From: Escherichia coli
GTDB lineage: Bacteria; Pseudomonadota; Gammaproteobacteria; Enterobacterales; Enterobacteriaceae
Reading direction: 5' to 3' (one strand)
Length of the DNA stretch: 64,000 bases
Assembly: GCF_003018255.1 (NCBI RefSeq)
Contig: NZ_CP027440.1
The translations under genes and the position numbers were made by a program. This document shows, in pieces, positions 16,693 through 33,702 of the stretch (its first letter is position 1; the number at the start of each line of letters is the position of its first letter). The notes under the pieces were generated by a model. That model ran no database searches and was not told where the DNA came from. It saw nothing but the letters and a program-made list of their open reading frames with translations.

Positions 16693-16859
16693 GAATCACT
16701 GATTTTGAGAAAAGAGAAAAAGTGATAAATGGGCTGGCAATAATAATTTTCAGGAGTGATTTTAATTCTCATTTGGCACCTGTGAGTTCATTCACAAAAA
16801 GCCATTAAGTTTCGAGCCGCCTCACATTTTTTTATATTTCCCGCCAAACCTGGCAAGAG

Positions 16860-16875
16860 TGGTGCGATTGTTGCT
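16860..16875 (+). promoter_or_regulatory. candidate sigma-54 -24/-12 promoter upstream of ygfK
   Basis: TGGtgCGattgTTGCT: GG-N10-GC spacing with TTGC -12 element; about 75 nt upstream of the ygfK ATG. Confidence 0.35.
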
Positions 16876-16947: not shown

Positions 16948-19900
16948 ATGGGGGATATTATGCGTCCCATTCCGTTTGAGGAACTTTTGACGCGCATATT
17001 TGATGAATACCAACAACAACGCTCAATCTTTGGTATTCCCGAGCAACAGTTTTACTCACCCGTAAAAGGTAAAACTGTTAGCGTCTTCGGTGAAACCTGT
17101 GCCACTCCCGTCGGCCCTGCCGCTGGCCCGCACACGCAGCTCGCGCAAAATATTGTCACTTCCTGGCTGACTGGCGGACGCTTCATCGAACTAAAAACCG
17201 TCCAAATTCTTGACCGCCTGGAGCTGGAAAAGCCCTGTATCGATGCCGAAGACGAGTGCTTTAACACCGAATGGTCTACCGAATTTACCCTGCTTAAAGC
17301 CTGGGATGAATACCTCAAAGCCTGGTTTGCCCTGCACCTTCTCGAAGCGATGTTCCAGCCTTCTGATTCCTGTAAATCGTTCATCTTTAATATGAGCGTC
17401 GGTTACAACCTCGAAGGTATTAAGCAACCGCCGATGCAGCAGTTCATCGACAATATGATGGACGCATCTGACCATCCGAAATTCGCTCAATACCGCGATG
17501 CACTTAATAAGCTACTCCAGGATGACGCATTTTTAGCCCGCCACGGCTTACAGGAAAAACGCGAAAGCTTGCAAGCCTTACCCGCTCGCATCCCCACCAG
17601 CATGGTACAAGGGGTTACCCTCTCCACCATGCACGGCTGTCCTCCGCATGAAATCGAAGCCATTTGCCGCTACATGCTGGAAGAAAAAGGGCTCAACACC
17701 TTTGTGAAACTCAACCCGACCTTACTGGGGTACGCGCGTGTTCGTGAGATCCTCGATGTCTGCGGTTTCGGTTACATCGGCTTAAAAGAAGAGTCATTTG
17801 ATCACGACCTCAAGCTGACGCAAGCACTGGAAATGCTGGAACGCCTGATGGCACTGGCAAAAGAAAAATCACTCGGCTTTGGCGTAAAACTGACTAACAC
17901 TCTCGGCACCATTAATAACAAAGGCGCACTGCCCGGTGAAGAGATGTATATGTCAGGCCGTGCGCTGTTCCCGCTCTCCATCAACGTTGCAGCAGTTCTC
18001 TCTCGCGCCTTTGACGGCAAACTGCCCATTTCTTATTCCGGTGGTGCCAGTCAGCTGACTATCCGCGATATTTTTGATACTGGTATTCGCCCTATTACTA
18101 TGGCAACCGACCTGCTGAAACCTGGCGGCTATCTGCGCTTAAGTGCCTGCATGCGCGAGCTGGAAGGCTCAGATGCCTGGGAGCTTAACCACGTTGACGT
18201 CGAACGACTGAACAGACTGGCAGCAGACGCGTTAACCATGGAATACACCCAGAAACACTGGAAGCCAGAAGAGCGTATTGAAGTGGCTGAAGACCTGCCG
18301 CTGACCGATTGCTACGTTGCCCCCTGTGTTACTGCCTGCGCTATCAAGCAAGATATTCCGGAATACATCCGTCTGCTTGGCGAACACCGCTATGCCGACG
18401 CGCTGGAACTCATCTATCAACGCAACGCCCTGCCCGCCATTACCGGTCATATTTGCGATCACCAGTGCCAATACAACTGTACCCGCCTGGATTACGACAG
18501 TGCGCTGAATATCCGCGAACTGAAAAAAGTCGCGCTGGAAAAAGGTTGGGATGAATATAAGCAACGCTGGCACAAACCAGCCGGTTCTGGTTCACGCCAT
18601 CCGGTTGCCGTGATTGGTGCAGGTCCGGCGGGTCTGGCAGCAGGTTACTTCCTTGCCAGAGCGGGCCATCCGGTTACGCTGTTTGAACGCGAAGCCAATG
18701 CGGGCGGCGTGGTGAAAAATATCATTCCTCAGTTCCGTATTCCTGCAGAGTTAATTCAGCACGATATCGATTTTGTTGCCGCTCACGGCGTAAAATTTGA
18801 GTATGGCTGCTCACCGGATCTGACCGTTGAACAGTTAAAAAATCAGGGCTTCCACTATGTTCTGATTGCCACCGGCACTGATAAAAATAGCGGTGTGAAA
18901 CTGGCGGGCGACAACCAAAATGTCTGGAAATCACTCCCCTTCCTGCGTGAATACAACAAGGGCACAGCGCTCAAGCTGGGCAAACATGTGGTCGTTGTCG
19001 GGGCGGGTAACACGGCAATGGACTGCGCTCGTGCGGCGTTACGCGTTCCAGGCGTAGAAAAAGCAACGGTCGTTTACCGTCGTTCACTGCAAGAGATGCC
19101 AGCATGGCGCGAAGAGTATGAAGAAGCGTTGCACGACGGCGTGGAGTTCCGTTTCCTGAATAATCCGGAACGTTTCGATGCTGATGGCACCTTAACCTTG
19201 CGCGTTATGTCGCTTGGCGAACCTGATGAGAAAGGTCGTCGCCGTCCGGTTGAAACCAACGAAACAGTAACACTGCATGTAGACAGCCTGATCACCGCCA
19301 TTGGTGAACAGCAGGATACTGAAGCCCTGAATGCGATGGGCGTGCCGCTGGACAAAAACGGCTGGCCAGACGTCGACCATAATGGCGAAACGCGTCTGAG
19401 TGACGTCTTTATGATCGGCGACGTACAGCGCGGACCATCCTCCATTGTCGCTGCTGTCGGAACCGCGCGTCGGGCGACCGATGCCATCCTGAGTCGGGAA
19501 AATATCCGTTCCCACCAGAACGATAAATACTGGAATAACGTCAATCCGGCGGAAATCTATCAACGTAAAGGCGATATCTCTGTCACTCTGGTGAACAGTG
19601 ACGATCGTGACGCGTTTGTCGCGCAGGAAGCCGCTCGCTGCCTTGAATGTAACTACGTTTGCAGCAAGTGTGTGGATGTCTGCCCGAACCGCGCCAACGT
19701 ATCCATTGCGGTCCCAGGCTTCCAGAACCGTTTCCAGACGCTGCATCTCGACGCCTACTGCAACGAATGCGGCAACTGCGCCCAATTCTGCCCGTGGAAC
19801 GGTAAACCGTACAAAGACAAAATCACCGTCTTCAGCCTGTCGCAAGACTTTGATAACAGCAGCAACCCAGGCTTCCTTGTGGAAGATTGCCGGGTACGCG

Positions 19901-20046
19901 TACGTCTGAATAACCAAAGCTGGGTGTTAAACATCGACAGCGAAGGTCAGTTCAACAACGTACCACCGGAGCTGAACGATATGTGCCGCATCATTAGCCA
20001 TGTCCACCAGCATCATCATTATCTGCTGGGCCGTGTGGAGGTGTAA
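16948..20046 (+). CDS. ygfK: large Fe-S flavoprotein oxidoreductase (glutamate synthase beta-like domain plus 4Fe-4S ferredoxin domains)
   Basis: 1032 aa; dinucleotide-binding [14 protein letters not shown]; Cys clusters CLECNYVCSKCVDVCP and CNECGNCAQFCP. Confidence 0.85.
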   Translation: MGDIMRPIPFEELLTRIFDEYQQQRSIFGIPEQQFYSPVKGKTVSVFGETCATPVGPAAGPHTQLAQNIVTSWLTGGRFIELKTVQILDRLELEKPCIDAEDECFNTEWSTEFTLLKAWDEYLKAWFALHLLEAMFQPSDSCKSFIFNMSVGYNLEGIKQPPMQQFIDNMMDASDHPKFAQYRDALNKLLQDDAFLARHGLQEKRESLQALPARIPTSMVQGVTLSTMHGCPPHEIEAICRYMLEEKGLNTFVKLNPTLLGYARVREILDVCGFGYIGLKEESFDHDLKLTQALEMLERLMALAKEKSLGFGVKLTNTLGTINNKGALPGEEMYMSGRALFPLSINVAAVLSRAFDGKLPISYSGGASQLTIRDIFDTGIRPITMATDLLKPGGYLRLSACMRELEGSDAWELNHVDVERLNRLAADALTMEYTQKHWKPEERIEVAEDLPLTDCYVAPCVTACAIKQDIPEYIRLLGEHRYADALELIYQRNALPAITGHICDHQCQYNCTRLDYDSALNIRELKKVALEKGWDEYKQRWHKPAGSGSRHPVAVIGAGPAGLAAGYFLARAGHPVTLFEREANAGGVVKNIIPQFRIPAELIQHDIDFVAAHGVKFEYGCSPDLTVEQLKNQGFHYVLIATGTDKNSGVKLAGDNQNVWKSLPFLREYNKGTALKLGKHVVVVGAGNTAMDCARAALRVPGVEKATVVYRRSLQEMPAWREEYEEALHDGVEFRFLNNPERFDADGTLTLRVMSLGEPDEKGRRRPVETNETVTLHVDSLITAIGEQQDTEALNAMGVPLDKNGWPDVDHNGETRLSDVFMIGDVQRGPSSIVAAVGTARRATDAILSRENIRSHQNDKYWNNVNPAEIYQRKGDISVTLVNSDDRDAFVAQEAARCLECNYVCSKCVDVCPNRANVSIAVPGFQNRFQTLHLDAYCNECGNCAQFCPWNGKPYKDKITVFSLSQDFDNSSNPGFLVEDCRVRVRLNNQSWVLNIDSEGQFNNVPPELNDMCRIISHVHQHHHYLLGRVEV

Positions 20047-20048
20047 TC

Positions 20049-21377
20049 ATGTTGATTCTGAAGAATGTCACCGCAGTGCAGTTACACCCAGCGAAAGTGC
20101 AGGAAGGCGTTGATATCGCCATCGAAAATGATGTGATTGTCGCTATCGGCGATGCCCTGACGCAACGCTACCCCGATGCCAGCTACAAAGAGATGCATGG
20201 TCGGATTGTGATGCCAGGAATTGTCTGCTCGCACAACCATTTTTACTCGGGGCTGTCCCGCGGAATTATGGCAAACATCGCCCCCTGCCCGGATTTCATC
20301 TCAACGCTGAAAAATCTCTGGTGGCGACTCGATCGCGCCCTTGATGAAGAGTCGCTCTATTACAGCGGACTGATTTGTTCCCTGGAAGCGATTAAGGGCG
20401 GATGTACATCGGTTATCGATCACCATGCCTCTCCGGCGTATATCGACGGGTCGCTCTCCACATTGCGCAACGCATTTTTAAAAGTTGGCCTGCGCGCGAT
20501 GACCTGTTTTGAAACTACTGACCGTAACAACGGTATCAAAGAGTTGCAGGAAGGTGTAGAAGAAAACATCCGCTTCGCCCGTCAGATTGATGATGCGAAG
20601 AAAGCGGCAACTGAACCGTATCTGGTAGAGGCTCATATTGGTGCTCACGCGCCGTTTACTGTGCCGGATGCCGGTCTGGAAATGCTGCGTGAGGCCGTGA
20701 AAGCCACAGGCCGTGGTTTACATATTCACGCTGCGGAAGACCTTTACGATGTTTCCCATAGTCATCACTGGTACGGCAAAGATCTGCTGGCACGATTAGC
20801 GCAATTCGATCTCATCGACAGCAAAACGCTGGTCGCTCATGGGCTTTATCTGTCTAAAGACGACATCGCGTTGCTCAATCAGCGTGATGCATTCCTGGTG
20901 CATAACGCCCGTTCAAACATGAACAACCATGTCGGCTACAACCATCATCTTTGCGACATCCGCAATCTGGCGTTGGGTACGGACGGTATTGGTTCAGATA
21001 TGTTTGAAGAGATGAAATTTGCCTTCTTTAAACATCGCGATGCGGGTGGTCCGCTGTGGCCTGACAGCTTTGCCAAAGCTCTGGCTAACGGCAACGAACT
21101 GATGAGCCGCAACTTTGGCGCGAAATTTGGCCTTCTGGAAGCCGGTTACAAAGCCGATTTAACCATTTGCGATTACAACTCGCCGACGCCGCTGCTGGCA
21201 GACAATATCGCCGGGCATATCGCTTTCGGTATGGGCTCAGGCAGCGTTCACAGCGTGATGGTCAATGGTGTGATGGTCTATGAAGACCGTCAGTTTAACT
21301 TCGATTGCGATTCCATTTATGCGCAAGCCAGAAAAGCCGCTGCCAGTATGTGGCGTCGGATGGATGCGCTGGCATAA
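20049..21377 (+). CDS. ssnA: amidohydrolase-superfamily aminohydrolase (chlorohydrolase-like)
   Basis: 442 aa; metal-binding HxH (CSHNHF); starts 3 nt after the ygfK stop. Confidence 0.85.
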   Translation: MLILKNVTAVQLHPAKVQEGVDIAIENDVIVAIGDALTQRYPDASYKEMHGRIVMPGIVCSHNHFYSGLSRGIMANIAPCPDFISTLKNLWWRLDRALDEESLYYSGLICSLEAIKGGCTSVIDHHASPAYIDGSLSTLRNAFLKVGLRAMTCFETTDRNNGIKELQEGVEENIRFARQIDDAKKAATEPYLVEAHIGAHAPFTVPDAGLEMLREAVKATGRGLHIHAAEDLYDVSHSHHWYGKDLLARLAQFDLIDSKTLVAHGLYLSKDDIALLNQRDAFLVHNARSNMNNHVGYNHHLCDIRNLALGTDGIGSDMFEEMKFAFFKHRDAGGPLWPDSFAKALANGNELMSRNFGAKFGLLEAGYKADLTICDYNSPTPLLADNIAGHIAFGMGSGSVHSVMVNGVMVYEDRQFNFDCDSIYAQARKAAASMWRRMDALA

Positions 21378-21427
21378 ATAACAGCTCCCCTCTTCTTTCA
21401 GAGAAGAGGGGAAATTAAGGAAAGACG

Positions 21428-22207
21428 ATGATTGAACAATTTTTCAGACCCGACTCTGTCGAACAGGCGCTGGAACTGAAGCGCCGCTACCAGGATGAAG
21501 CCGTCTGGTTCGCCGGGGGCAGCAAACTCAACGCTACACCAACCCGTACCGATAAAAAGATTGCCATTTCCTTACAGGATCTGGAACTGGACTGGGTTGA
21601 CTGGGATAACGGTGCACTGCGGATTGGCGCGATGTCTCGCTTGCAAACACTGCGTGATGCGCGATTTATTCCTGCAGCACTGCGTGAAGCTCTCGGTTTT
21701 GTTTACTCACGCCATGTTCGTAATCAGTCGACCATTGGTGGTGAAATTGCCGCCCGGCAAGAAGAGTCAGTGCTGCTTCCCGTCCTGCTGGCACTGGATG
21801 CTGAACTGGTTTTTGGCAACGGCGAAACTCTGTCAATTGAGGAGTACCTGGCCTGCCCATGCGATCGCCTGCTAACCGAAATCATCATTAAAGATCCGTA
21901 TCGCACCTGTGCGACTCGCAAAATTAGCCGTTCTCAGGCAGGTTTAACCGTCGTGACGGCAGCCGTTGCAATAACAGACCACGACGGTATGCGAATTGCG
22001 CTGGATGGCGTAGCCAGTAAAGCACTGCGTCTGCACGATGTTGAAAAACAAAACCTGGAAGGTGATGCCCTTGAACAGGCTGTCGCCAACGCCATTTTCC
22101 CGCAGGAAGATTTGCGGGGCAGCGTGGCCTATAAACGCTATATCACGGGAGTTCTGGTAGCCGACCTTTATGCCGACTGCCAACAGGCTGGGGAGGAAGC
22201 CGTATGA
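21428..22207 (+). CDS. ygfM: FAD-binding molybdopterin dehydrogenase subunit-like protein
   Basis: 259 aa; CO dehydrogenase flavoprotein-like; stop overlaps xdhD start. Confidence 0.8.
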   Translation: MIEQFFRPDSVEQALELKRRYQDEAVWFAGGSKLNATPTRTDKKIAISLQDLELDWVDWDNGALRIGAMSRLQTLRDARFIPAALREALGFVYSRHVRNQSTIGGEIAARQEESVLLPVLLALDAELVFGNGETLSIEEYLACPCDRLLTEIIIKDPYRTCATRKISRSQAGLTVVTAAVAITDHDGMRIALDGVASKALRLHDVEKQNLEGDALEQAVANAIFPQEDLRGSVAYKRYITGVLVADLYADCQQAGEEAV

Positions 22208-25074
22208 TCATCCACTTTACTTTAAATGGCACGCCCCAGGAGCTAACCGTTAATCCTGGTGAAAACGTGCAAAAGCTGTTGTTTAACATGGGAATGCACT
22301 CTGTACGCAACAGCGATGATGGCTTTGGGTTTGCCGGTTCTGACGCAATTATCTTTAACGGTAATATCGTTAACGCGTCCTTGCTTATCGCCGCACAGTT
22401 AGAGAAGGCAGATATTCGTACCGCAGAATCTCTGGGCAAATGGAATGAGTTAAGTCTGGTTCAACAGGCCATGGTTGATGTTGGCGTGGTGCAGTCTGGT
22501 TATAACGATCCAGCTGCGGCTCTGATTATCACCGATCTTCTCGATCGCATCGACGCACCTACCCGCGAAGAGATCGACGACGCGCTCTCAGGTCTGTTTA
22601 GCCGCGATGCTGGCTGGCAGCAATACTATCAGGTCATTGAACTGGCGGTTGCACGTAAAAATAATCCGCAGGCCACCATTGATATCGCTCCGACTTTCCG
22701 TGACGACCTTGAAGTCATTGGCAAGCATTATCCTAAAACTGATGCCGCGAAAATGGTGCAGGCGAAACCCTGCTATGTTGAAGATCGCGTAACGGCTGAC
22801 GCCTGCGTCATTAAAATGTTACGTAGCCCACACGCTCACGCACTGATTACTCATCTGGATGTCAGCAAAGCTGAAGCCTTACCGGGCGTCGTTCACGTTA
22901 TTACTCACCTGAATTGCCCGGATATTTACTATACCCCGGGTGGTCAGAGCGCACCGGAACCGTCACCGCTTGACCGCCGAATGTTCGGCAAGAAAATGCG
23001 TCACGTCGGCGATCGCGTTGCTGCGGTCGTCGCTGAAAGTGAAGACATTGCGCTCGAAGCACTGAAGCTCATCGACGTTGAATATGAAGTGCTTAAGCCG
23101 GTAATGTCGATTGACGAGGCAATGGCGGAAGATGCGCCTGTCGTGCACGATGAACCGGTGGTGTATGTTGCTGGTGCACCAGATACTCTGGAGGAAGATA
23201 ACTGTCATGCAGCCCAGCGCGGCGAGCATATGATCATCAACTTCCCGATCGGTTCTCGCCCACGCAAAAATATCGCTGCCAGTATTCATGGTCATATTGG
23301 TGATATGGACAAAGGCTTTGCCGATGCCGATGTGATCATTGAGCGAACCTATAACTCAACGCAGGCGCAGCAGTGCCCGACTGAAACACATATCTGCTTT
23401 ACCCGTATGGACGGCGATCGTCTGGTGATCCACGCCTCCACCCAGGTACCATGGCACTTACGCCGCCAGGTCGCGCGCCTCGTGGGCATGAAACAACATA
23501 AAGTTCATGTCATTAAAGAACGTGTAGGCGGCGGTTTTGGCTCTAAACAGGACATCCTGCTGGAAGAAGTGTGCGCCTGGGCAACTTGCGTGACCGGGCG
23601 TCCGGTACTTTTCCGCTACACCCGTGAAGAAGAGTTTATTGCTAACACCTCTCGTCACGTAGCGAAAGTCACCGTCAAACTGGGCGCGAAAAAAGATGGT
23701 CGCCTGACGGCAGTGAAGATGGATTTCCGCGCCAACACTGGTCCTTACGGTAACCACTCACTCACCGTACCGTGTAACGGACCGGCGCTGTCGCTGCCGT
23801 TATATCCATGCGATAACGTCGATTTCCAGGTCACCACCTACTACAGCAACATTTGCCCAAATGGTGCTTATCAGGGTTATGGCGCACCGAAAGGTAACTT
23901 CGCTATCACCATGGCGTTAGCGGAACTGGCGGAACAATTGCAGATCGACCAACTGGAAATTATTGAACGTAATCGTGTACACGAAGGGCAGGAGTTGAAA
24001 ATTCTCGGTGCGATTGGTGAAGGTAAAGCGCCGACATCCGTTCCTTCCGCCGCCAGCTGCGCACTGGAAGAGATCCTGCGTCAGGGTCGCGAGATGATCC
24101 AATGGTCTTCACCAAAACCGCAAAATGGTGACTGGCACATCGGTCGCGGCGTCGCCATTATCATGCAGAAATCAGGGATCCCAGATATCGATCAGGCTAA
24201 CTGCATGATCAAACTGGAATCAGACGGTACCTTTATCGTTCATTCTGGCGGTGCGGATATTGGTACTGGTTTGGATACTGTGGTGACGAAACTGGCAGCA
24301 GAAGTGCTGCACTGCCCCCCGCAGGACGTGCATGTTATCTCCGGTGATACCGATCATGCGTTGTTTGATAAAGGCGCATATGCCTCGTCCGGTACTTGCT
24401 TCTCGGGTAACGCTGCGCGTTTGGCAGCGGAAAATCTGCGGGAGAAAATCCTGTTCCACGGCGCGCAAATGTTGGGTGAGCCAGTGGCAGATGTTCAACT
24501 AGCAACGCCGGGCGTCGTTCGCGGCAAGAAAGGCGAAGTTAGTTTCGGAGAGATAGCCCATAAAGGCGAAACCGGCACCGGCTTTGGTTCACTGGTGGGA
24601 ACTGGCAGTTATATCACGCCTGATTTCGCCTTCCCGTATGGCGCAAACTTCGCTGAAGTTGCCGTCAACACGCGTACGGGTGAAATCCGCCTGGATAAAT
24701 TCTACGCCTTGCTGGACTGCGGTACACCGGTCAATCCAGAGTTAGCGCTGGGACAAATCTACGGTGCCACCCTGCGTGCTATCGGCCACAGTATGAGCGA
24801 AGAGATCATTTATGACGCCGAAGGTCACCCGTTAACGCGTGATTTACGCAGTTACGGCGCACCGAAAATTGGTGACATTCCGCGTGATTTCCGCGCTGTG
24901 CTGGTGCCGAGCGACGATAAAGTCGGCCCATTCGGGGCGAAATCGATCTCGGAAATCGGTGTAAATGGCGCCGCTCCGGCGATTGCTACCGCAATTCACG
25001 ATGCCTGCGGCATCTGGTTACGCGAATGGCATTTCACACCGGAGAAAATACTCACCGCGCTGGAAAAAATATAA
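22204..25074 (+). CDS. xdhD: molybdenum hydroxylase large subunit (xanthine dehydrogenase family) with N-terminal extension
   Basis: 956 aa; Mo-pterin hydroxylase family with a Cys-poor ferredoxin-like N-terminal region. Confidence 0.85.
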   Translation: MIIHFTLNGTPQELTVNPGENVQKLLFNMGMHSVRNSDDGFGFAGSDAIIFNGNIVNASLLIAAQLEKADIRTAESLGKWNELSLVQQAMVDVGVVQSGYNDPAAALIITDLLDRIDAPTREEIDDALSGLFSRDAGWQQYYQVIELAVARKNNPQATIDIAPTFRDDLEVIGKHYPKTDAAKMVQAKPCYVEDRVTADACVIKMLRSPHAHALITHLDVSKAEALPGVVHVITHLNCPDIYYTPGGQSAPEPSPLDRRMFGKKMRHVGDRVAAVVAESEDIALEALKLIDVEYEVLKPVMSIDEAMAEDAPVVHDEPVVYVAGAPDTLEEDNCHAAQRGEHMIINFPIGSRPRKNIAASIHGHIGDMDKGFADADVIIERTYNSTQAQQCPTETHICFTRMDGDRLVIHASTQVPWHLRRQVARLVGMKQHKVHVIKERVGGGFGSKQDILLEEVCAWATCVTGRPVLFRYTREEEFIANTSRHVAKVTVKLGAKKDGRLTAVKMDFRANTGPYGNHSLTVPCNGPALSLPLYPCDNVDFQVTTYYSNICPNGAYQGYGAPKGNFAITMALAELAEQLQIDQLEIIERNRVHEGQELKILGAIGEGKAPTSVPSAASCALEEILRQGREMIQWSSPKPQNGDWHIGRGVAIIMQKSGIPDIDQANCMIKLESDGTFIVHSGGADIGTGLDTVVTKLAAEVLHCPPQDVHVISGDTDHALFDKGAYASSGTCFSGNAARLAAENLREKILFHGAQMLGEPVADVQLATPGVVRGKKGEVSFGEIAHKGETGTGFGSLVGTGSYITPDFAFPYGANFAEVAVNTRTGEIRLDKFYALLDCGTPVNPELALGQIYGATLRAIGHSMSEEIIYDAEGHPLTRDLRSYGAPKIGDIPRDFRAVLVPSDDKVGPFGAKSISEIGVNGAAPAIATAIHDACGIWLREWHFTPEKILTALEKI

Positions 25075-25083
25075 GTAATAAAT

Positions 25084-25113
25084 GGCCGCTTCGGCGGCCT
25101 GTTTCTCTGTTTG
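25084..25113 (+). terminator. intrinsic terminator after xdhD
   Basis: GGCCGC-ttcg-GCGGCC hairpin followed by TGTTTCTCTGTTT. Confidence 0.6.
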
Positions 25114-25238
25114 AACGATGACTAAATAGTGACTGCGAAAATGAGATAAGCCGTTCTCAAGGCGTCCTGCGCCCCAAATTCGTGGGAATTTATTTTACTA
25201 ATTCAGATGATCAAATTTACTTTAAAAGGAGTGAAGGG

Positions 25239-26639
25239 ATGTCTGATATAAACCATGCAGGTTCTGACCTTATATTTGAACTGGAGGATCGCCCTCCCTT
25301 TCATCAGGCTCTCGTAGGTGCCATTACCCATCTGTTGGCAATTTTCGTTCCGATGGTAACCCCCGCGTTAATCGTGGGTGCGACCTTACAGCTTTCCGCT
25401 GAAACAACTGCCTATCTTGTTTCTATGGCGATGATCGCCTCTGGTATTGGTACCTGGTTACAAGTAAACCGCTACGGCATCGTCGGTTCTGGTCTTCTCT
25501 CAATTCAGTCAGTCAATTTTTCATTTGTTACGGTCATGATTGCGCTGGGCAGCAGCATGAAAAGCGACGGTTTTCACGAAGAGTTAATCATGTCGTCGCT
25601 CCTCGGCGTCTCCTTCGTTGGCGCATTTCTGGTTGTCGGCTCTTCTTTTATCCTGCCCTATTTACGTCGGGTTATTACGCCTACCGTCAGCGGTATTGTG
25701 GTACTGATGATCGGCTTAAGCCTGATTAAAGTCGGCATTATCGATTTTGGTGGAGGATTTGCAGCCAAAAGCAGCGGTACGTTCGGCAATTACGAACATC
25801 TCGGCGTTGGTTTATTGGTTTTAATTGTGGTGATCGGCTTTAACTGCTGTCGCAGTCCGTTGCTACGCATGGGAGGGATCGCCATTGGGCTATGTGTCGG
25901 CTATATCGCATCGTTATGCCTGGGCATGGTGGATTTCAGCAGTATGCGCAATTTGCCGTTAATCACCATCCCGCATCCGTTCAAATACGGCTTTAGTTTT
26001 AGCTTCCATCAGTTCCTGGTGGTTGGCACGATTTATCTGCTTAGCGTGCTGGAAGCAGTCGGCGATATCACCGCCACGGCAATGGTTTCCCGCCGCCCCA
26101 TTCAGGGGGAAGAGTATCAGTCCCGACTGAAAGGCGGCGTGCTGGCAGATGGTCTGGTTTCTGTTATCGCCTCCGCTGTCGGTTCATTACCATTAACCAC
26201 GTTTGCGCAAAATAATGGGGTTATTCAGATGACTGGCGTCGCTTCACGTTATGTCGGGCGAACCATCGCGGTAATGCTGGTTATCCTCGGCTTATTTCCG
26301 ATGATTGGCGGCTTCTTCACGACCATTCCCTCGGCAGTTCTGGGAGGCGCAATGACGTTGATGTTTTCCATGATTGCCATCGCTGGGATTCGCATCATCA
26401 TCACCAACGGATTAAAGCGCCGAGAAACACTTATTGTCGCCACGTCTTTAGGTTTAGGGCTTGGCGTCTCCTACGATCCCGAAATTTTTAAAATATTGCC
26501 AGCCTCTATTTATGTATTAGTTGAAAACCCTATTTGTGCTGGCGGGTTAACTGCGATTTTATTAAATATTATCCTCCCTGGTGGCTACCGACAGGAAAAC
26601 GTTCTGCCTGGTATTACCTCAGCGGAAGAGATGGATTAA
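25239..26639 (+). CDS. xanQ: xanthine permease (NCS2/NAT family)
   Basis: Track ORF 25182..26639; start trimmed to MSDINHAG (466 aa); multi-span hydrophobic transporter. Confidence 0.85.
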   Translation: MSDINHAGSDLIFELEDRPPFHQALVGAITHLLAIFVPMVTPALIVGATLQLSAETTAYLVSMAMIASGIGTWLQVNRYGIVGSGLLSIQSVNFSFVTVMIALGSSMKSDGFHEELIMSSLLGVSFVGAFLVVGSSFILPYLRRVITPTVSGIVVLMIGLSLIKVGIIDFGGGFAAKSSGTFGNYEHLGVGLLVLIVVIGFNCCRSPLLRMGGIAIGLCVGYIASLCLGMVDFSSMRNLPLITIPHPFKYGFSFSFHQFLVVGTIYLLSVLEAVGDITATAMVSRRPIQGEEYQSRLKGGVLADGLVSVIASAVGSLPLTTFAQNNGVIQMTGVASRYVGRTIAVMLVILGLFPMIGGFFTTIPSAVLGGAMTLMFSMIAIAGIRIIITNGLKRRETLIVATSLGLGLGVSYDPEIFKILPASIYVLVENPICAGGLTAILLNIILPGGYRQENVLPGITSAEEMD

Positions 26640-26653
26640 CAGTAAAGGAGTCA

Positions 26654-27973
26654 ATGATGTCAGGAGAACACACGTTAAAAGCGGTACGAGGCAGTTTTAT
26701 TGATGTCACCCGTACGGTCGATAACCCGGAAGAAATTGCCTCTGCGCTGCGGTTTATTGAGGATGGTTTATTACTCATTAAACAGGGAAAAGTGGAATGG
26801 TTTGGCGAATGGGAAGACGGAAAGCATCAAATTCCTGACACCATTCGCGTGCGCGACTATCGCGGCAAACTGATAGTACCGGGCTTTGTCGATACACATA
26901 TCCATTATCCGCAAAGTGAAATGGTGGGGGCCTATGGTGAACAATTGCTGGAGTGGTTGAATAAACACACCTTCCCTACTGAACGTCGTTATGAGGATTT
27001 AGAGTACGCCCGCGAGATGTCAGCGTTCTTCATCAAGCAGCTTTTACGTAACGGAACCACCACGGCGCTGGTGTTTGGCACTGTTCATCCACAATCCGTT
27101 GATGCGCTGTTTGAAGCCGCCAGTCATATCAATATGCGTATGATTGCCGGTAAGGTGATGATGGACCGAAACGCACCGGATTATCTGCTCGACACTGCCG
27201 AAAGCAGCTATCACCAAAGCAAAGAACTGATTGAACGCTGGCACAAAAATGGTCGTCTGTTGTATGCGATTACGCCACGCTTCGCCCCTACCTCATCTCC
27301 TGAACAGATGGCGATGGCGCAACGCCTGAAAGAAGAATATCCGGATACGTGGGTACATACCCATCTCTGTGAAAACAAAGATGAAATTGCCTGGGTCAAA
27401 TCGCTTTATCCTGACCATGATGGTTATCTGGATGTTTACCATCAGTACGGTCTGACCGGTAAAAACTGTGTCTTTGCTCACTGCGTCCATCTCGAAGAAA
27501 AAGAGTGGGATCGTCTCAGCGAAACCAAATCCAGCATTGCTTTCTGTCCGACCTCCAACCTTTACCTCGGCAGCGGCTTATTCAACTTGAAAAAAGCATG
27601 GCAGAAGAAAGTCAAAGTGGGCATGGGAACGGATATCGGTGCCGGAACAACTTTTAACATGCTGCAAACGCTGAACGAAGCCTACAAGGTATTGCAATTA
27701 CAAGGCTATCGCCTCTCGGCATATGAAGCGTTTTACCTAGCCACGCTCGGCGGAGCGAAATCTCTGGGCCTTGACGATTTGATTGGCAACTTTTTACCTG
27801 GCAAAGAGGCTGATTTCGTGGTGATGGAACCCACTGCCACTCCGCTACAGCAGCTGCGCTATGACAACTCTGTTTCTTTAGTCGACAAATTGTTCGTGAT
27901 GATGACGTTGGGCGATGACCGTTCGATCTACCGCACCTACGTTGATGGTCGTCTGGTGTACGAACGCAACTAA
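26654..27973 (+). CDS. guaD: guanine deaminase
   Basis: Track ORF 26534..27973 has a spurious 40-aa extension overlapping xanQ; true start MMSGEHTLK (439 aa) preceded by AGGAG; HxH motif FVDTHIHYP. Confidence 0.9.
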   Translation: MMSGEHTLKAVRGSFIDVTRTVDNPEEIASALRFIEDGLLLIKQGKVEWFGEWEDGKHQIPDTIRVRDYRGKLIVPGFVDTHIHYPQSEMVGAYGEQLLEWLNKHTFPTERRYEDLEYAREMSAFFIKQLLRNGTTTALVFGTVHPQSVDALFEAASHINMRMIAGKVMMDRNAPDYLLDTAESSYHQSKELIERWHKNGRLLYAITPRFAPTSSPEQMAMAQRLKEEYPDTWVHTHLCENKDEIAWVKSLYPDHDGYLDVYHQYGLTGKNCVFAHCVHLEEKEWDRLSETKSSIAFCPTSNLYLGSGLFNLKKAWQKKVKVGMGTDIGAGTTFNMLQTLNEAYKVLQLQGYRLSAYEAFYLATLGGAKSLGLDDLIGNFLPGKEADFVVMEPTATPLQQLRYDNSVSLVDKLFVMMTLGDDRSIYRTYVDGRLVYERN

Positions 27974-28008
27974 TAATAAAACTTTAACATCCTCGTGAGG
28001 ACATCATT

Positions 28009-29376
28009 ATGTCTGGAGACATCCTACAAACACCGGACGCACCAAAGCCACAGGGCGCGCTGGATAATTATTTTAAAATTACCGCTCGTGGCAGTACCAT
28101 TCGTCAGGAAGTACTGGCTGGCTTAACGACCTTTCTGGCCATGGTTTATTCCGTTATCGTCGTTCCGGGAATGCTGGGCAAAGCAGGTTTTCCTCCCGCA
28201 GCTGTGTTTGTTGCCACCTGTCTGGTCGCGGGCTTCGGCTCGTTGCTGATGGGGTTATGGGCCAATTTGCCAATGGCGATTGGTTGCGCTATTTCCTTGA
28301 CGGCGTTTACCGCATTCAGTCTGGTACTCGGGCAACAAATTAGCGTTCCTGTCGCACTGGGCGCAGTCTTTCTGATGGGCGTCATCTTCACCGCTATTTC
28401 CGTAACCGGTGTGCGTACCTGGATCTTACGTAATTTGCCGATGGGGATCGCTCACGGTACAGGTATCGGTATCGGCCTGTTTCTGCTGCTGATTGCTGCT
28501 AACGGTGTGGGAATGGTTATCAAAAACCCGATTGAAGGCTTGCCAGTGGCGCTCGGTGCGTTTACCTCCTTCCCGGTGATGATGAGCTTACTGGGGCTGG
28601 CGGTCATCTTCGGTCTGGAGAAGTGTCGCGTACCCGGCGGGATCTTGTTGGTGATTATTGCAATTTCGATCATCGGCTTAATCTTTGACCCAGCGGTGAA
28701 GTACCACGGTCTGGTGGCGATGCCAAGCCTGACTGGCGAAGATGGTAAGTCTCTGATTTTCAGCCTCGATATTATGGGCGCACTCCAGCCAACTGTACTT
28801 CCGAGTGTACTGGCATTGGTGATGACCGCAGTGTTCGACGCCACTGGCACCATCCGTGCCGTCGCCGGTCAGGCGAATTTGTTGGATAAAGACAACCAGA
28901 TCATCAACGGCGGCAAAGCCCTGACCAGTGACTCAGTAAGTTCAATATTCTCCGGCCTGGTGGGCGCAGCGCCCGCGGCGGTTTATATCGAATCAGCGGC
29001 AGGAACCGCCGCCGGGGGGAAAACCGGTTTAACCGCAGCCGTTGTTGGTGCGTTGTTCCTGATGATTCTGTTTTTATCACCGTTGTCGTTTCTGATCCCC
29101 GGTTATGCTACTGCCCCCGCTCTGATGTACGTGGGTTTGCTGATGTTAAGCAACGTCTCGAAGCTGGATTTCAACGATTTTATTGACGCAATGGCTGGCC
29201 TGGTGTGTGCCGTGTTCATCGTTCTGACTTGTAATATCGTTACCGGTATTATGCTGGGCTTTGTAACATTGGTGGTGGGTCGCGTCTTTGCGCGCGAATG
29301 GCAAAAGCTGAATATTGGTACGGTGATCATTACTGCCGCACTGGTCGCGTTTTACGCGGGTGGTTGGGCAATCTAA
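28009..29376 (+). CDS. ghxQ: guanine/hypoxanthine permease (NCS2, AzgA-like)
   Basis: 455 aa; polytopic membrane protein. Confidence 0.85.
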
Positions 29377-29382
29377 TAGATC

Positions 29383-29404
29383 CTCCGCGCCTTTCAGCGC
29401 GGAG
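29383..29404. terminator. hairpin between convergent ghxQ and ygfS (probable bidirectional terminator)
   Basis: CTCCGCGC-ctttca-GCGCGGAG, followed by ATTTCTTTC on the + strand. Confidence 0.5.
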
Positions 29405-29411
29405 ATTTCTT

Positions 29412-29903
29412 TCACAGAGGATTCTCACCGCTGGCAACAATACGCTGCTGGCGGACTCGCCTGAGTTCTCTTTCAGTAAGCAACTGCAGCGCCTGTGTTG
29501 GGCAAGATTCAACGCAGGCTGGCCCCTCTTCCCGCTGTTCACAGAGATCGCATTTCACGATTTGTTGCCGGGTATCCCCCGGCAACGACTGAATGGTGAT
29601 CATTCCAAACGGGCACGCACTGACGCAACTCTGACAGCCAATACAACGGGCAGAATTGGTCTGCACCACCTGCTCGCCCATCGTCAGCGCCCCCACGGGG
29701 CAAGCGCTAACACAAGGGGCGTTTTCACACTGATGGCACATCACCGGCGCACTGATGCTGTCCAGTCGCTGTACCTTCAGCCGGGGTAAAAAGACATCGG
29801 CATTCAACTCCTGTTCTGAAGGGTGAGCGACCACACAGGCTACTTCACAAGTACGGCAGCCAATACAGTCAGCCGGATTAACGATAATTAACGATTTCAT
29901 CAC
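29412..29903 (-). CDS. ygfS: 4Fe-4S ferredoxin-type electron-transfer protein
   Basis: 163 aa (possibly 162 from the second Met); multiple CxxCxxCxxxCP motifs. Confidence 0.85.
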
Positions 29904-31819
29904 GATGCCTTCGTATCAAACAGAGTTAACATATCGCGCGCCGCCTGCCTTCCTGCGGCCATTGCAGTGACAACCAGATCCGCGCCATGAACAGCATCAC
30001 CACCAGCAAAGACTTTTTTCAGATGCGTCTGGGTAGGTAAATACCCGACGTCACCGGTTTGAATCAGGCCCCATTTATCGAGTTTAATTCCGCTGCCCTG
30101 CAACCACGGCATGGCATGCGCCTGGAAACCAAAGGCCATAATGAGAACATCGGCGGGCAATTCAAACTCTGAACCCGCTACCGGACGAGGACGACGGCGA
30201 CCATCCGGCCCCGGCTCACCCATGGCGGTACGAATCAGGCCCACCGCAGTTAAACGCCCATCTTCGTCACAAGCGATATATTGCGGCTGAACATTGAACT
30301 GAAACTTGACACCTTCCTCGCGCGCATTGACCACCTCTTTGCGCGAGCCCGGCATACTGACTTCATCACGACGATACGCGCAGGTCACGCTGGCGGCATT
30401 GAGGCGGATGGAAGTCCGCAAACAATCCATGGTCGTATCGCCACCGCCCAATACCACGACTCGCTTACCTTCCACATCCGTCAGCGGATACTCTTCAGAC
30501 TCCGGCAACCCCATGAGCTGGCGGGTATGGGCAGTCAGGAACGGTAGAGCCTGAATGACACCGGGCGCATCTTCATGCGGCAGATCTGCTCGCATCATCC
30601 CGTAAGTCCCCACGCCGATGAAAACTGCATCATATTCAGAAGTTAAATCGCTAAAGGTAATATCGCGGCCAATTTCACAGTTAAGATGAAAGTCGATTCC
30701 CATTGCGGTGAATATCTCTCGCCGCTGGCTTAATACCGTTTTATCGAGTTTGAAAGGAGGTATGCCAAAAGTCAGCATACCGCCAATTTCTGGATGGCGA
30801 TCAAAGACATCAACCTGAACTCCTGCGCGCGCCAAAATATCAGCACACCCTAACCCTGCAGGCCCTGCGCCAATCACCGCCACTTTTTCGATACGGGGAA
30901 CAACTTTGCTGACATCGGGACGCCAGCCCATCGCCAGCGCGGTATCGGTAATGTAGCGTTCCAGATTCCCGATAGAGACTGCGCCAGAGTGATCTTTCAA
31001 AGTACATGCGCCTTCACAAAGACGGTCCTGTGGACATACCCTGCCGCAGATTTCTGGCAAGGAACTGGTCTGGTGGCAAAGTTCTGCCGCTTCAATAATC
31101 TTTCCTTCCTGCACCAGACGGATGTAATCCGGAATAGCGTTATGCAGCGGGCAATGCCAGTTGCAGTTAGCTTTTTCGGCGCAATAAACACAGCGGTCAC
31201 TCTCATAAGTCGCTTGTTGTGGATCCAGCCCGTAATAGATTTCGCCAAAGTGGGTTTTCCGTTCACTCGCTGAAATTTTATCTGCGCCTTTACGCGAGTT
31301 AACGGGGAGCAACGCTGCACTGCGAGATGGCTGAGCGTCTGATGACGCTTTTCCTGCTGCCGTTTTGCGCTGGCGGGCCACCTTTATCTGCTGCAACCCT
31401 TTATCGTCCATCAGCCGTAACGCCTGTGTTGGGCAGACTTCAATACAGGCTTGCGTGCCGGAACTGCGCTGGTTACAAAGGTCGCATTTCTGCGCAATCG
31501 TATCGACCATCTCAACGACGCCAAAGGGGCAAGCGATTGCGCATCTTTTACAACCAATACATTTTTGCTCGTCCAGTTGTACGCTATCGGGCTGGAAAGT
31601 CAGAGCATTAACCGGACAAGCCGTAACGCAAGGGGCATTGTTGCAGTGATGGCAGGCCACCGGATTCGCAGCCTGGCCTTTCCCTACAACGTGGATACGC
31701 GGTCGAAAGTCACTGTGACTCAGCGGCCAGTTTTCTTGATTATGTGCCATCGCACAGGCAATTTCACAAGCATGACAGCCTATACATTCCGCAGCTTCAG
31801 CAGCGATAAACTTATTCAT
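29900..31819 (-). CDS. ygfT: Fe-S flavoprotein oxidoreductase (N-terminal 4Fe-4S ferredoxin domain plus glutamate synthase beta-like FAD/NAD(P) domain)
   Basis: Track ORF to 31834; start trimmed to [15 protein letters not shown] (639 aa); [14 protein letters not shown] dinucleotide-binding motif. Confidence 0.8.
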
Positions 31820-32101
31820 TTGCATCCCTTTCATTTAATGAGTTATGTCTTCTCAAATTTCGCGATGCAATAAATGGGCATGTATTAGGTAGCATGGCCG
31901 ATTTAATTATAATTTTGCGACTGAGTTCAAATTATTGCCCCTCAATCTATGCAGCTTTCATTATTTCAACATTGCCGATCAAAAGAATGCTATCCAGATA
32001 AAAACGATTAAATGCGAGAGTGCGACATGCCAGAATGATTAATGAAATATCAATATGAGAAAATTACAGATAATTCCATTGTCAGGTTCTCTTCTCATTT
32101 T

Positions 32102-32253: not shown

Positions 32254-33702
32254 ATGAGCGCCATAGATTCCCAACTTCCCTCATCTTCTGGGCAAGACCG
32301 CCCAACTGATGAGGTTGACCGCATATTATCACCAGGAAAGCTGATCATACTCGGTCTGCAACACGTCCTTGTCATGTACGCAGGTGCAGTCGCTGTTCCT
32401 CTTATGATTGGCGACCGACTGGGCCTCTCAAAAGAAGCTATTGCGATGCTCATTAGCTCGGATCTCTTTTGCTGCGGGATCGTCACATTATTGCAATGTA
32501 TCGGTATCGGCCGCTTTATGGGGATCCGCCTGCCGGTGATTATGTCGGTGACCTTCGCCGCTGTAACACCAATGATAGCCATTGGGATGAACCCGGATAT
32601 CGGCCTGCTGGGGATATTTGGTGCCACTATCGCCGCGGGTTTTATCACCACATTATTAGCGCCACTTATCGGTCGCTTGATGCCTTTATTCCCGCCACTG
32701 GTTACCGGTGTGGTTATTACTTCTATCGGACTTAGCATCATTCAGGTGGGTATTGACTGGGCCGCAGGAGGTAAAGGGAATCCGCAATATGGTAATCCCG
32801 TTTATTTAGGTATCTCCTTTGCCGTCTTAATTTTTATCTTGCTCATTACTCGCTATGCGAAAGGATTTATGTCCAACGTCGCCGTATTACTGGGGATTGT
32901 ATTTGGCTTTTTACTTTCGTGGATGATGAATGAAGTCAATTTATCCGGGCTACATGATGCCTCGTGGTTTGCGATTGTCACCCCGATGTCGTTTGGTATG
33001 CCGATTTTTGATCCCGTTTCCATTCTGACCATGACTGCCGTGTTAATCATCGTGTTTATCGAGTCGATGGGGATGTTCCTGGCACTGGGTGAAATAGTTG
33101 GTCGTAAACTCTCTTCACACGATATTATTCGCGGGCTGCGTGTCGATGGCGTAGGGACAATGATAGGCGGAACGTTTAACAGCTTCCCCCATACGTCATT
33201 TTCACAAAACGTTGGCCTGGTTAGCGTGACGCGCGTTCATAGCCGCTGGGTGTGTATTTCTTCGGGAATTATATTAATCCTGTTTGGCATGGTGCCAAAA
33301 ATGGCGGTGCTGGTCGCCTCCATTCCGCAATTTGTGCTGGGCGGTGCTGGGCTGGTGATGTTCGGCATGGTACTGGCGACAGGGATTCGAATTCTGTCGC
33401 GCTGTAACTACACCACCAACCGTTACAACCTCTATATTGTGGCGATCAGTCTCGGCGTTGGCATGACGCCAACGCTCTCTCACGATTTCTTTTCTAAGTT
33501 ACCGGCCGTACTGCAACCGTTGCTGCATAGCGGCATTATGCTCGCAACCCTTAGCGCCGTTGTGCTGAACGTCTTCTTTAATGGCTATCAGCATCATGCT
33601 GATCTGGTGAAGGAATCCGTCTCTGATAAAGATTTAAAAGTCAGGACAGTACGTATGTGGCTTCTGATGCGCAAGCTGAAGAAAAATGAGCATGGAGAAT
33701 AA
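32254..33702 (+). CDS. uacT: uric acid (urate) transporter, NCS2/NAT family
   Basis: Track ORF 32122..33702; start trimmed to MSAIDSQLP (482 aa) preceded by AGGAGAAA. Confidence 0.85.
   Translation: MSAIDSQLPSSSGQDRPTDEVDRILSPGKLIILGLQHVLVMYAGAVAVPLMIGDRLGLSKEAIAMLISSDLFCCGIVTLLQCIGIGRFMGIRLPVIMSVTFAAVTPMIAIGMNPDIGLLGIFGATIAAGFITTLLAPLIGRLMPLFPPLVTGVVITSIGLSIIQVGIDWAAGGKGNPQYGNPVYLGISFAVLIFILLITRYAKGFMSNVAVLLGIVFGFLLSWMMNEVNLSGLHDASWFAIVTPMSFGMPIFDPVSILTMTAVLIIVFIESMGMFLALGEIVGRKLSSHDIIRGLRVDGVGTMIGGTFNSFPHTSFSQNVGLVSVTRVHSRWVCISSGIILILFGMVPKMAVLVASIPQFVLGGAGLVMFGMVLATGIRILSRCNYTTNRYNLYIVAISLGVGMTPTLSHDFFSKLPAVLQPLLHSGIMLATLSAVVLNVFFNGYQHHADLVKESVSDKDLKVRTVRMWLLMRKLKKNEHGE

Follow-up and report, generated by a model that had tools for sequence, protein, structure and literature searches.

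Anaerobic urate degradation by the reductive (2,8-dioxopurine) pathway was described at the level of its enzymes in two studies of 2025, both of which used Escherichia coli K-12 YgfK for their enzymology. In one of these, YgfK purified anaerobically was found to need NADPH, not NADH, and to convert only 2,8-dioxopurine among three xanthine isomers, and the enzyme was named 2,8-dioxopurine reductase (DOPOR) (Liu et al., bioRxiv 10.1101/2025.04.24.650524). In the other, YgfK and SsnA together with NAD(P)H gave ureidomethyl-hydantoin in a coupled assay, deletion of ygfK blocked the step after XdhD in vivo, and deletion of xdhD blocked the conversion of urate to 2,8-dioxopurine (Li et al., PMC12507026). 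The closest known counterpart of YgfK in build is dihydropyrimidine dehydrogenase (DPD; the mammalian enzyme and, in E. coli, PreT-PreA), which, like YgfK, combines a GltD-like NADPH/FAD module and its N-terminal Fe-S region with a flavin barrel of the dihydroorotate dehydrogenase (DHODH) type and a C-terminal 2x[4Fe-4S] domain, and whose reaction is likewise the reduction of a C=C bond, in a ring of the uracil type. YgfT (UacF) is described genetically as a formate-dependent urate-utilisation factor, and aegA and ygfT are both stated to be required for urate degradation that depends on formate and on formate dehydrogenase H (FDH-H) (Iwadate and Kato, 2019, via later summaries).

The window analysed here is a stretch of 64,000 nucleotides of E. 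coli DNA (contig NZ_CP027440.1), and within it the present work concerns the 14.9 kb that run from the ATG of ygfK at 16948 to the annotated ATG of ygfT, on the minus strand, at 31819. A sequence-only reading of this stretch had proposed that two Fe-S flavoproteins, YgfK and YgfT, and the ferredoxin YgfS together make up one electron module for the Mo hydroxylases encoded nearby. The data presented below lead us to judge, with moderate confidence, that YgfK, YgfT and YgfS do not make up a single electron module and that they have two separate jobs in the published pathway. The two parts of this explanation differ in strength: that YgfK is a catalytic 2,8-dioxopurine reductase is close to certain, and its role as an NAD(P)H-dependent DOPOR is already known, whereas the part that concerns YgfS and YgfT (YgfST) stands at about even. 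The region is well studied, and what is still of interest in it is the putative part played by YgfST and an XdhD predicted to be free of Fe-S clusters.

Results

ygfK (16948..20046, plus strand) encodes a protein of 1032 aa, which the NCBIfam model TIGR03315, Pfam and the published enzymology identify as DOPOR, a permuted DPD-like Fe-S flavoenzyme. The match to TIGR03315 scores 1779.5 bits against a cut-off of 835.3 and covers residues 2-1027, and Pfam reports Fer4_20 (3.3e-16), Pyr_redox_2 (2.9e-42) and a weak C-terminal dicluster match. The proposal that YgfK and YgfT each join a GxGxxG motif to a region of Fe-S cysteines is borne out, as Fer4_20 and Pyr_redox_2 are present in both, and an 11-residue dinucleotide-binding motif is common to the two (aa 553-563 of YgfK and aa 313-323 of the 639 of YgfT); only the second dinucleotide site has to be corrected, which in both proteins is GxGxxA/T (VVVVGAGNTAMD in YgfK) and not strict GxGxxG. 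A YRR motif occurs at this second nucleotide site in YgfK and YgfT alike, and the domain and motif matches lie far above chance as judged by hidden Markov model (HMM) E-values. The GltD-like module of YgfK (aa 453-839; 18304..19464, plus strand) consists of Fer4_20, an FAD-binding GxGxxG at 557-562 and the NADPH site with its YRR motif. Its Fer4_20 region (453-532) contains only six cysteines in a 3+3 arrangement (455, 460, 464, 503, 507 and 511; 18310-18480), compared with eight (4+4) in YgfT, and the C-terminus carries nine cysteines in two motifs, CLECNYVCSKCVDVCP and CNECGNCAQFCP, which make up the 2x[4Fe-4S] segment (aa 894-955; 19627..19812, plus strand). Against the GltD family model TIGR01318 the protein reaches 208.6 bits, below the cut-off of 482.95, and by this measure YgfK carries a GltD-like module only and is not a member of the GltD family.

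Residues 1-440 (16948..18267, plus strand) gave zero matches by Pfam, by phmmer against the PDB or by a 56-sequence profile against the PDB. An AlphaFold2 model of the N-terminal 450 aa, built from the same 56-sequence alignment, reached a predicted local distance difference test score (pLDDT) of 90.3, and in a Foldseek search against the PDB the top 19 matches of this model were DPD chains (best pig DPD, E 3.5e-9, probability 1.00), followed by DHODHs at target template modelling (TM) scores of 0.5-0.6. The model and its fold matches thereby assign to this region a DHODH/DPD-like TIM barrel with a putative FMN and substrate site. The motif STMHGCP (aa 226-232) is invariant in the 56 homologues, as are other barrel residues, and may resemble the catalytic-Cys loop of DPD and DHODH. 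Because the barrel is N-terminal and stands ahead of Fer4_20, YgfK departs from the domain order of DPD and is a permuted relative of it; on the strength of the model, it is predicted to be a circularly permuted DPD-like enzyme with a substrate site of its own. In such an enzyme, NADPH would reduce the FAD of the GltD-like module, from which electrons would pass over the [4Fe-4S] clusters to the flavin of the N-terminal barrel. There, 2,8-dioxopurine supplied by XdhD-YgfM would be dearomatised; the reduction itself is established by published biochemistry, and SsnA (20049..21377, plus strand), an aminohydrolase, then opens the ring of the YgfK product. As YgfK works on the product of XdhD-YgfM, it is a catalyst and not an electron relay for the Mo enzyme.

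On the minus strand, ygfT (uacF; 29900..31819) encodes a fusion protein of 639 aa, in which a HycB/HydN-like domain with four [4Fe-4S] clusters (aa 1-150; 31370..31819) is followed by a GltD-like NADPH flavoprotein with 2x[4Fe-4S], whose Fer4_20 and Pyr_redox_2 domains (aa 188-623; 29951..31258) hold the FAD and NADPH sites. A second in-frame ATG lies five codons upstream at 31834 and is not used by the family model. YgfT scores 1499.7 bits against the YgfT equivalog NF009451 (cut-off 1154) and 846.8 bits against TIGR01318, well over the GltD cut-off given above, and Pfam reports Fer4_20 (2.4e-37), Pyr_redox_2 (1.5e-20) and Fer4_11 (7.9e-12). Its closest PDB matches are GltS beta (2.5e-107) and, for the N-terminus, the formate hydrogenlyase (FHL) subunit HycB (1.7e-30). 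Sixteen cysteines are found in the four N-terminal ferredoxin motifs and eight more in the GltD-like region (210, 213, 219, 223, 258, 262, 268 and 272), which also contains GAGPAG. YgfS (29412..29900, minus strand; 162 aa) is a ferredoxin of the HydN/HycB type with 4x[4Fe-4S]; its four motifs contain exactly 16 cysteines, and it shares 49% identity with the N-terminal domain of YgfT. Against the HydN model NF007658, which the YgfT N-terminus also matches, YgfS scores 137.9 bits (cut-off 260), and is by its score probably a HydN paralogue rather than a HydN equivalog. The description of YgfS as a poly-ferredoxin coupled to ygfT holds, with the ygfT TGA (29902-29900) and the ygfS ATG (29900-29898) overlapping by one base and an AAGG some 8-11 nt upstream.

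The Mo subunit of urate 6-dehydroxylase, which converts urate to 2,8-dioxopurine according to published activity and a deletion phenotype, is encoded by xdhD (22204..25074, plus strand), and its FAD subunit by ygfM (21428..22207, plus strand). The first 165 residues of XdhD (22204..22698, plus strand) are a double domain of the 2Fe-2S type, which aligns free of gaps to 2Fe-2S subunits (3hrd_D, E 1.7e-17) and matches Fer2_2 at 5e-12. PF00111 was undetected in XdhD; judged from the alignment, the N-terminal fold is clearly homologous to the Fer2 and Fer2_2 domains. That the N-terminus of XdhD is devoid of Fe-S cysteines, as had been remarked, is correct: its first 170 residues contain zero cysteines and 0/8 ligands. 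All eight are present in XdhC of the same window (C44, C49, C52, C64, C103, C106, C140 and C142), and the corresponding positions in XdhD are D39, A44, D47, S59, S98, N101, S133 and D135. This replacing pattern, DADSSNSD (DADSSNHD in Aeromonas), is constant in about 60 species (loci L005-L067), and the XdhD segment RNSDDGFGFAGSD is nearly invariant. As the replacing residues are kept across so many species, the loss of ligands is not degeneration, and from their conservation the former cluster sites may have taken on a new function.

The word-indexed homologue search with XdhD reached no relatives below 75% identity, and the Cys-bearing sister groups came from 50%-identity cluster representatives. 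Among the fused XdhD homologues in this second set, 32 of 37 keep all eight cysteines. Three representatives share the Cys-less state, their nearest sister groups (48-52% identity) retain all eight, and beyond the Cys-less, half-lost and sister groups the other 30 fused homologues do so as well. The gene for the FAD subunit lies upstream of Cys-less, half-lost and Cys-full forms alike (three representatives, on contigs of 2-4 kb). The half-lost form is a relative of 39% identity from metagenome assembly GCA_003358065.1 (P0126; L003, 1479-4310), in which the first four cysteines, those of the FAD-proximal cluster, are lost and the second four are kept; it may be a transitional form on the way to losing the Fe-S wire. 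Both FAD motifs of YgfM, AGGSxL and RNxSTIGG, show at least 95% conservation, a level reached by only 19% of YgfM positions. A compensating Fe-S loop in YgfM, as found in the beta subunit of 4-hydroxybenzoyl-CoA reductase, was considered and ruled out, since its few cysteines (a CPC motif) are not conserved. A conserved flavin subunit is thus paired with a Mo subunit, and no carrier is present to pass electrons from one to the other.

The comparative set comprised one genome per species and 68 loci, in which the 10-kb flanks around xdhD were searched by tblastn with all island proteins. The core ygfK-ssnA-ygfM-xdhD is near-universal in these loci, across Enterobacterales, Aeromonas, Vibrio and Rhodocyclaceae, and ygfK and ssnA are adjacent in almost all of them. 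ygfT lies within 10 kb of xdhD in about 19 of the 68, and ygfS in fewer. All three of ygfS, ygfT and uacT are found in Escherichia, one Citrobacter, Trabulsiella, Pluralibacter, Yokenella and Buttiauxella; ygfT and uacT are found without ygfS in Atlantibacter and two Citrobacter-labelled genomes, uacT without ygfST in C. amalonaticus, Klebsiella indica and one Citrobacter metagenome-assembled genome, and none of the three near xdhD in Edwardsiella, Hafnia, Morganella, Serratia, Aeromonas and Vibrio. ygfT is restricted to some Enterobacteriaceae, every ygfT locus also has uacT, and ygfS occurs only with ygfT. This patchy distribution marks ygfST as a late accessory that is tied to the urate importer and does not belong to the cluster core; it is a lineage-restricted accessory inserted between ghxQ and uacT. 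The proposal of a single YgfK, YgfT and YgfS module for the Mo hydroxylases fails at this point, as ygfT accompanies xdhD at so few loci and ygfK, which does co-occur with it, is catalytic.

Further loci of the set deserve mention. In Kluyvera spp. (L009, L010 and L016), ygfM-xdhD-xanQ-guaD-ghxQ comes directly after xdhABC and neither ygfK nor ssnA is present within 10 kb; XdhD-YgfM is therefore retained where the downstream pathway for 2,8-dioxopurine is not close by. A locus labelled Flavobacterium paronense (L068) was rejected as a distant host of XdhD, as its ygfK-ssnA-ygfM-xdhD-xanQ contains stretches 99-100% identical to E. coli with frameshifts in between; the most probable source is contaminating E. 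coli DNA in a long-read assembly rich in errors.

A GltD-like module fused to a formate dehydrogenase (FDH) was found in Ferrimonas aestuarii (L050, 4640-8761, minus strand), in a gene divergently transcribed from ygfM-xdhD. The protein of 1374 aa joins a 2Fe-2S domain, a GltD-like NADPH module, two [4Fe-4S] motifs and a Cys-type FDH alpha; it scores 785.6 bits against TIGR01591 (cut-off 666), and the active-site motifs CARLCH and LRGQSNVQG are kept. This constitutes gene-fusion evidence tying a GltD-like module to FDH. The 3+3 cysteine pattern of the YgfK Fer4_20 region is also seen in the Ferrimonas protein.

The 14.9-kb stretch is E. coli chromosome, with 99.2% identity to annotated genomes; at least 80% of it was found in 5161 of 5426 complete E. 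coli genomes, and the DNA of the window region is 95-99% identical to most of them. The order of the purine island is xdhABC, ygeV, ygeWXY-hyuA-arcC, yqeBC, mocA, ygfK-ssnA-ygfM-xdhD, xanQ-guaD-ghxQ, ygfS-ygfT (minus strand) and uacT, the last of these (32254..33702, plus strand) encoding a urate/H+ symporter and being divergent from ygfT. A sigma-54-type promoter motif 5' of ygfK (16859..16875, plus strand) is an exact match to a ChIP-seq site in PMC4591121, and a weak motif of the same type 5' of ygfT (31866..31882, minus strand) has two mismatches to the site given there; in that study the ygfT-upstream site itself has a low motif score, and the ygfK-upstream site is a good one. Both motifs are consistent with the island being a YgeV/sigma-54 regulon. 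A GC-rich hairpin (CTCCGCGC..GCGCGGAG) at 29380-29411, directly 3' of the ygfS stop codon and flanked by ghxQ and ygfS, which converge on it, looks like a bidirectional terminator.

Discussion

The features of YgfS and YgfT allow a model for the second of the two jobs, in which YgfST most likely links FDH-H to the NADP(H) pool. This model proposes that electrons from formate would pass from FDH-H over the clusters of YgfS and YgfT to the FAD of YgfT and on to NADP+, where YgfS and the YgfT N-terminus would take them from FDH-H directly or via HydN or YsaA, and where six to ten [4Fe-4S] clusters would be crossed before the FAD is reached. NADPH from YgfT would then feed the NADPH-specific YgfK, pulling the reversible first step forward, and YgfST would in this way supply part of the four electrons required between urate and diaminopropionate; XdhD would receive its own two electrons by a separate route. 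Members of the HycB/HydN group, to which YgfS and the YgfT N-terminus belong, accept electrons from FDH-H. In published data, ygfT is strongly induced by urate and aegA only modestly. YgfS, YgfT and AegA have been placed in one paralogue group with HydN, YsaA and HycB, and HydN and YsaA have been shown to interact with FDH-H, and AegA with HycB, HydN and YsaA (PMC6004506). The suggestion that the electron module exchanges electrons with the Mo hydroxylases thus survives in part. It does not stand for YgfK, which has its own substrate and acts after XdhD; it is plausible for YgfST, for which FDH-H and NADP(H) are the more likely partners. Several points weigh against the proposed link. The AegA-FdhF two-hybrid interaction was not detected, and deletion of aegA left the dye activity of FDH-H unchanged (PMC6004506). 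Since fermenting E. coli has other sources of NADPH, it has no obvious need of a route devoted to formate:NADP+ electron transfer. As gene-fusion evidence the Ferrimonas protein stands alone, and its locus lacks ygfK and ssnA in the surrounding 10 kb. Further, the absence of Fe-S ligands from XdhD makes a path from NADH over YgfM to Mo hard to square with the geometry of the xanthine oxidoreductase family, which leaves room for a direct Fe-S donor.

This last point concerns the first step of the pathway, for which the published account has NADH deliver electrons via the FAD of YgfM to XdhD, and in which XdhD-YgfM was reported to make 2,8-dioxopurine with NADH alone (PMC12507026). A published pull-down with tagged XdhD recovered only a protein of about 30 kDa, putatively YgfM, and no co-purifying YgfK was reported. 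The clostridial XdhD orthologue lacks an FAD subunit but possesses Fe-S domains, and neither NADH nor NADPH serves as its donor (bioRxiv 10.1101/2025.04.24.650524); it is the mirror image of the proteobacterial XdhD-YgfM. Within the searchable literature, the missing ligands are mentioned neither in the two 2025 papers nor in a commentary that calls YgfM 'the electron-transfer module'. We put forward tentatively, and at somewhat less than an even chance, that proteobacterial XdhD-YgfM is a member of the xanthine oxidase family without [2Fe-2S] clusters, in which the canonical wire from FAD over Fe-S to Mo is impossible and electrons reach Mo otherwise. One option for such an enzyme would be an external Fe-S protein (YgfS, YgfT, AegA or one of the HydN type) that docks near the Mo cofactor. 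Another would be a ping-pong reaction in which a second reducing substrate, such as xanthine, also acts at the Mo site; XdhD-YgfM would then in effect be a xanthine/2,8-dioxopurine hydroxyl-shifting enzyme. As XdhD has no Fe-S cysteines, members of this clade are ill described by the RefSeq product name 'Mo/Fe-S-binding subunit'.

An alternate scenario would have YgfS and YgfT wire electrons into XdhD itself and so make up for its lost [2Fe-2S] clusters, with formate or NADPH reducing the clusters of YgfT and YgfS and these in turn the Mo cofactor. Some non-canonical entry is indeed needed where 0/8 ligands are present beside a conserved FAD subunit, and the failure of the clostridial orthologue to use either nicotinamide nucleotide points the same way. 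In Edwardsiella, Hafnia, Morganella, Serratia, Aeromonas, Vibrio and Rhodocyclaceae, however, the same Cys-less XdhD-YgfM has neither ygfT nor ygfS within 10 kb, and certain genera have ygfT without ygfS, or uacT without either, which weighs against this scenario. The consumption of urate, which is the XdhD step, reportedly depends on formate, aegA and ygfT, and ygfST is urate-induced and lies within the same island; against this must be set the reported activity with NADH alone, and a Cys-less domain that still sits between the FAD and Mo sites. We consider direct reduction of XdhD by YgfST unlikely, and rank it below the link from FDH-H to NADP(H).

Less likely still, and in our view improbable, YgfT may be a bifurcating or confurcating enzyme similar to NfnB, or electrons may flow in reverse, from NADPH over the Fe-S clusters to YgfS, so that a low-potential reductant is provided or electrons are discharged into the FHL network. 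In NfnAB, which is among the closest solved relatives of YgfT (5jca_L, 1.1e-85; 9n5u_A), it is the GltD-like module that bifurcates, and the possibility has been raised for AegA in a review (PMC8097209). The ten clusters of YgfST also resemble HycB3/HycB4 of the hydrogen-dependent CO2 reductase (HDCR) complex (7qv7). However, neither an NfnA-like second flavoprotein nor a [2Fe-2S] partner is encoded beside ygfST. Finally, the reading in which YgfK is an NAD(P)H-linked relay to or from XdhD or XdhA and does not act on a purine, although it can draw on the tight linkage of ygfK to ygfM-xdhD in nearly all loci, on the GltD-like module and at least four clusters of YgfK, and on the analogous jobs that Liu et al. 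(2022) once proposed for YgfK, AegA and YgfT, is already contradicted and very nearly without a chance of being right, as YgfK reduces its substrate without any Mo enzyme (bioRxiv 10.1101/2025.04.24.650524; PMC12507026), a ygfK deletion accumulates the XdhD product 2,8-dioxopurine and XdhD therefore works without YgfK, a PydA-type reductase replaces YgfK in C. difficile (PMC12507026), Kluyvera retains ygfM-xdhD without a nearby ygfK, and the protein is modelled to have a DPD/DHODH-type barrel of its own.

The division of labour that we favour, with YgfK as the catalyst of one step and YgfST as a separate link to formate, has some practical bearing. The island encodes the anaerobic urate pathway by which gut bacteria remove host uric acid, and so bears on gout and on engineered probiotics. 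Anyone who transplants or overexpresses the pathway needs to know whether a component is a catalyst or an electron feeder: YgfK is to be treated as an enzyme with its own demand for NADPH, whereas many natural versions of the cluster do without ygfST, to which the formate dependence in E. coli may be due. In the accepted first step, from NADH over YgfM to XdhD, the lack of Fe-S ligands in XdhD leaves a gap.

Comparison with Known Systems

Set against DPD, YgfK has the same components in another order. In DPD the order is Fe-S region, FAD, NADPH, FMN barrel and 2x[4Fe-4S], whereas the barrel of YgfK is N-terminal and undetectable by sequence; YgfK further differs in having six rather than seven to eight Fer4_20 cysteines, and in its substrate, 2,8-dioxopurine. 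XdhD-YgfM has the domain order and the FAD subunit of the xanthine oxidase family, represented by the xanthine dehydrogenase of R. capsulatus, E. coli XdhABC and 4-hydroxybenzoyl-CoA reductase. However, that family has FAD, two [2Fe-2S] clusters and the Mo cofactor, and XdhD has none of the eight cluster ligands.

The E. coli paralogue of YgfT, AegA, similarly joins a HydN-like four-cluster domain to a GltD-like module, and shares with YgfT a formate-dependent urate phenotype. YgfT scores 953.5 bits against the AegA model, short of its cut-off of 1003, and exceeds that of its own model; unlike AegA, it is encoded in the purine island, is strongly induced by urate, and is followed by the separate ferredoxin YgfS. 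The partners of FDH-H, namely HycB, HydN and YsaA, have four CxxCxxCxxxC-type motifs, as do YgfS and the N-terminus of YgfT, although YgfS falls below the HydN cut-off. Lastly, in fusions of GltD-like and FDH-like proteins (PDB 8oh5_C and 9bov_A, and the Ferrimonas protein), a GltD-like NADPH module is wired via Fe-S clusters to an FDH-type domain that carries Mo or W bis-pyranopterin guanine dinucleotide (bisPGD). Such fusions would be the single-chain version of the FdhF-YgfS-YgfT chain proposed here, the parts of which are separate in E. coli, with fdhF located elsewhere.

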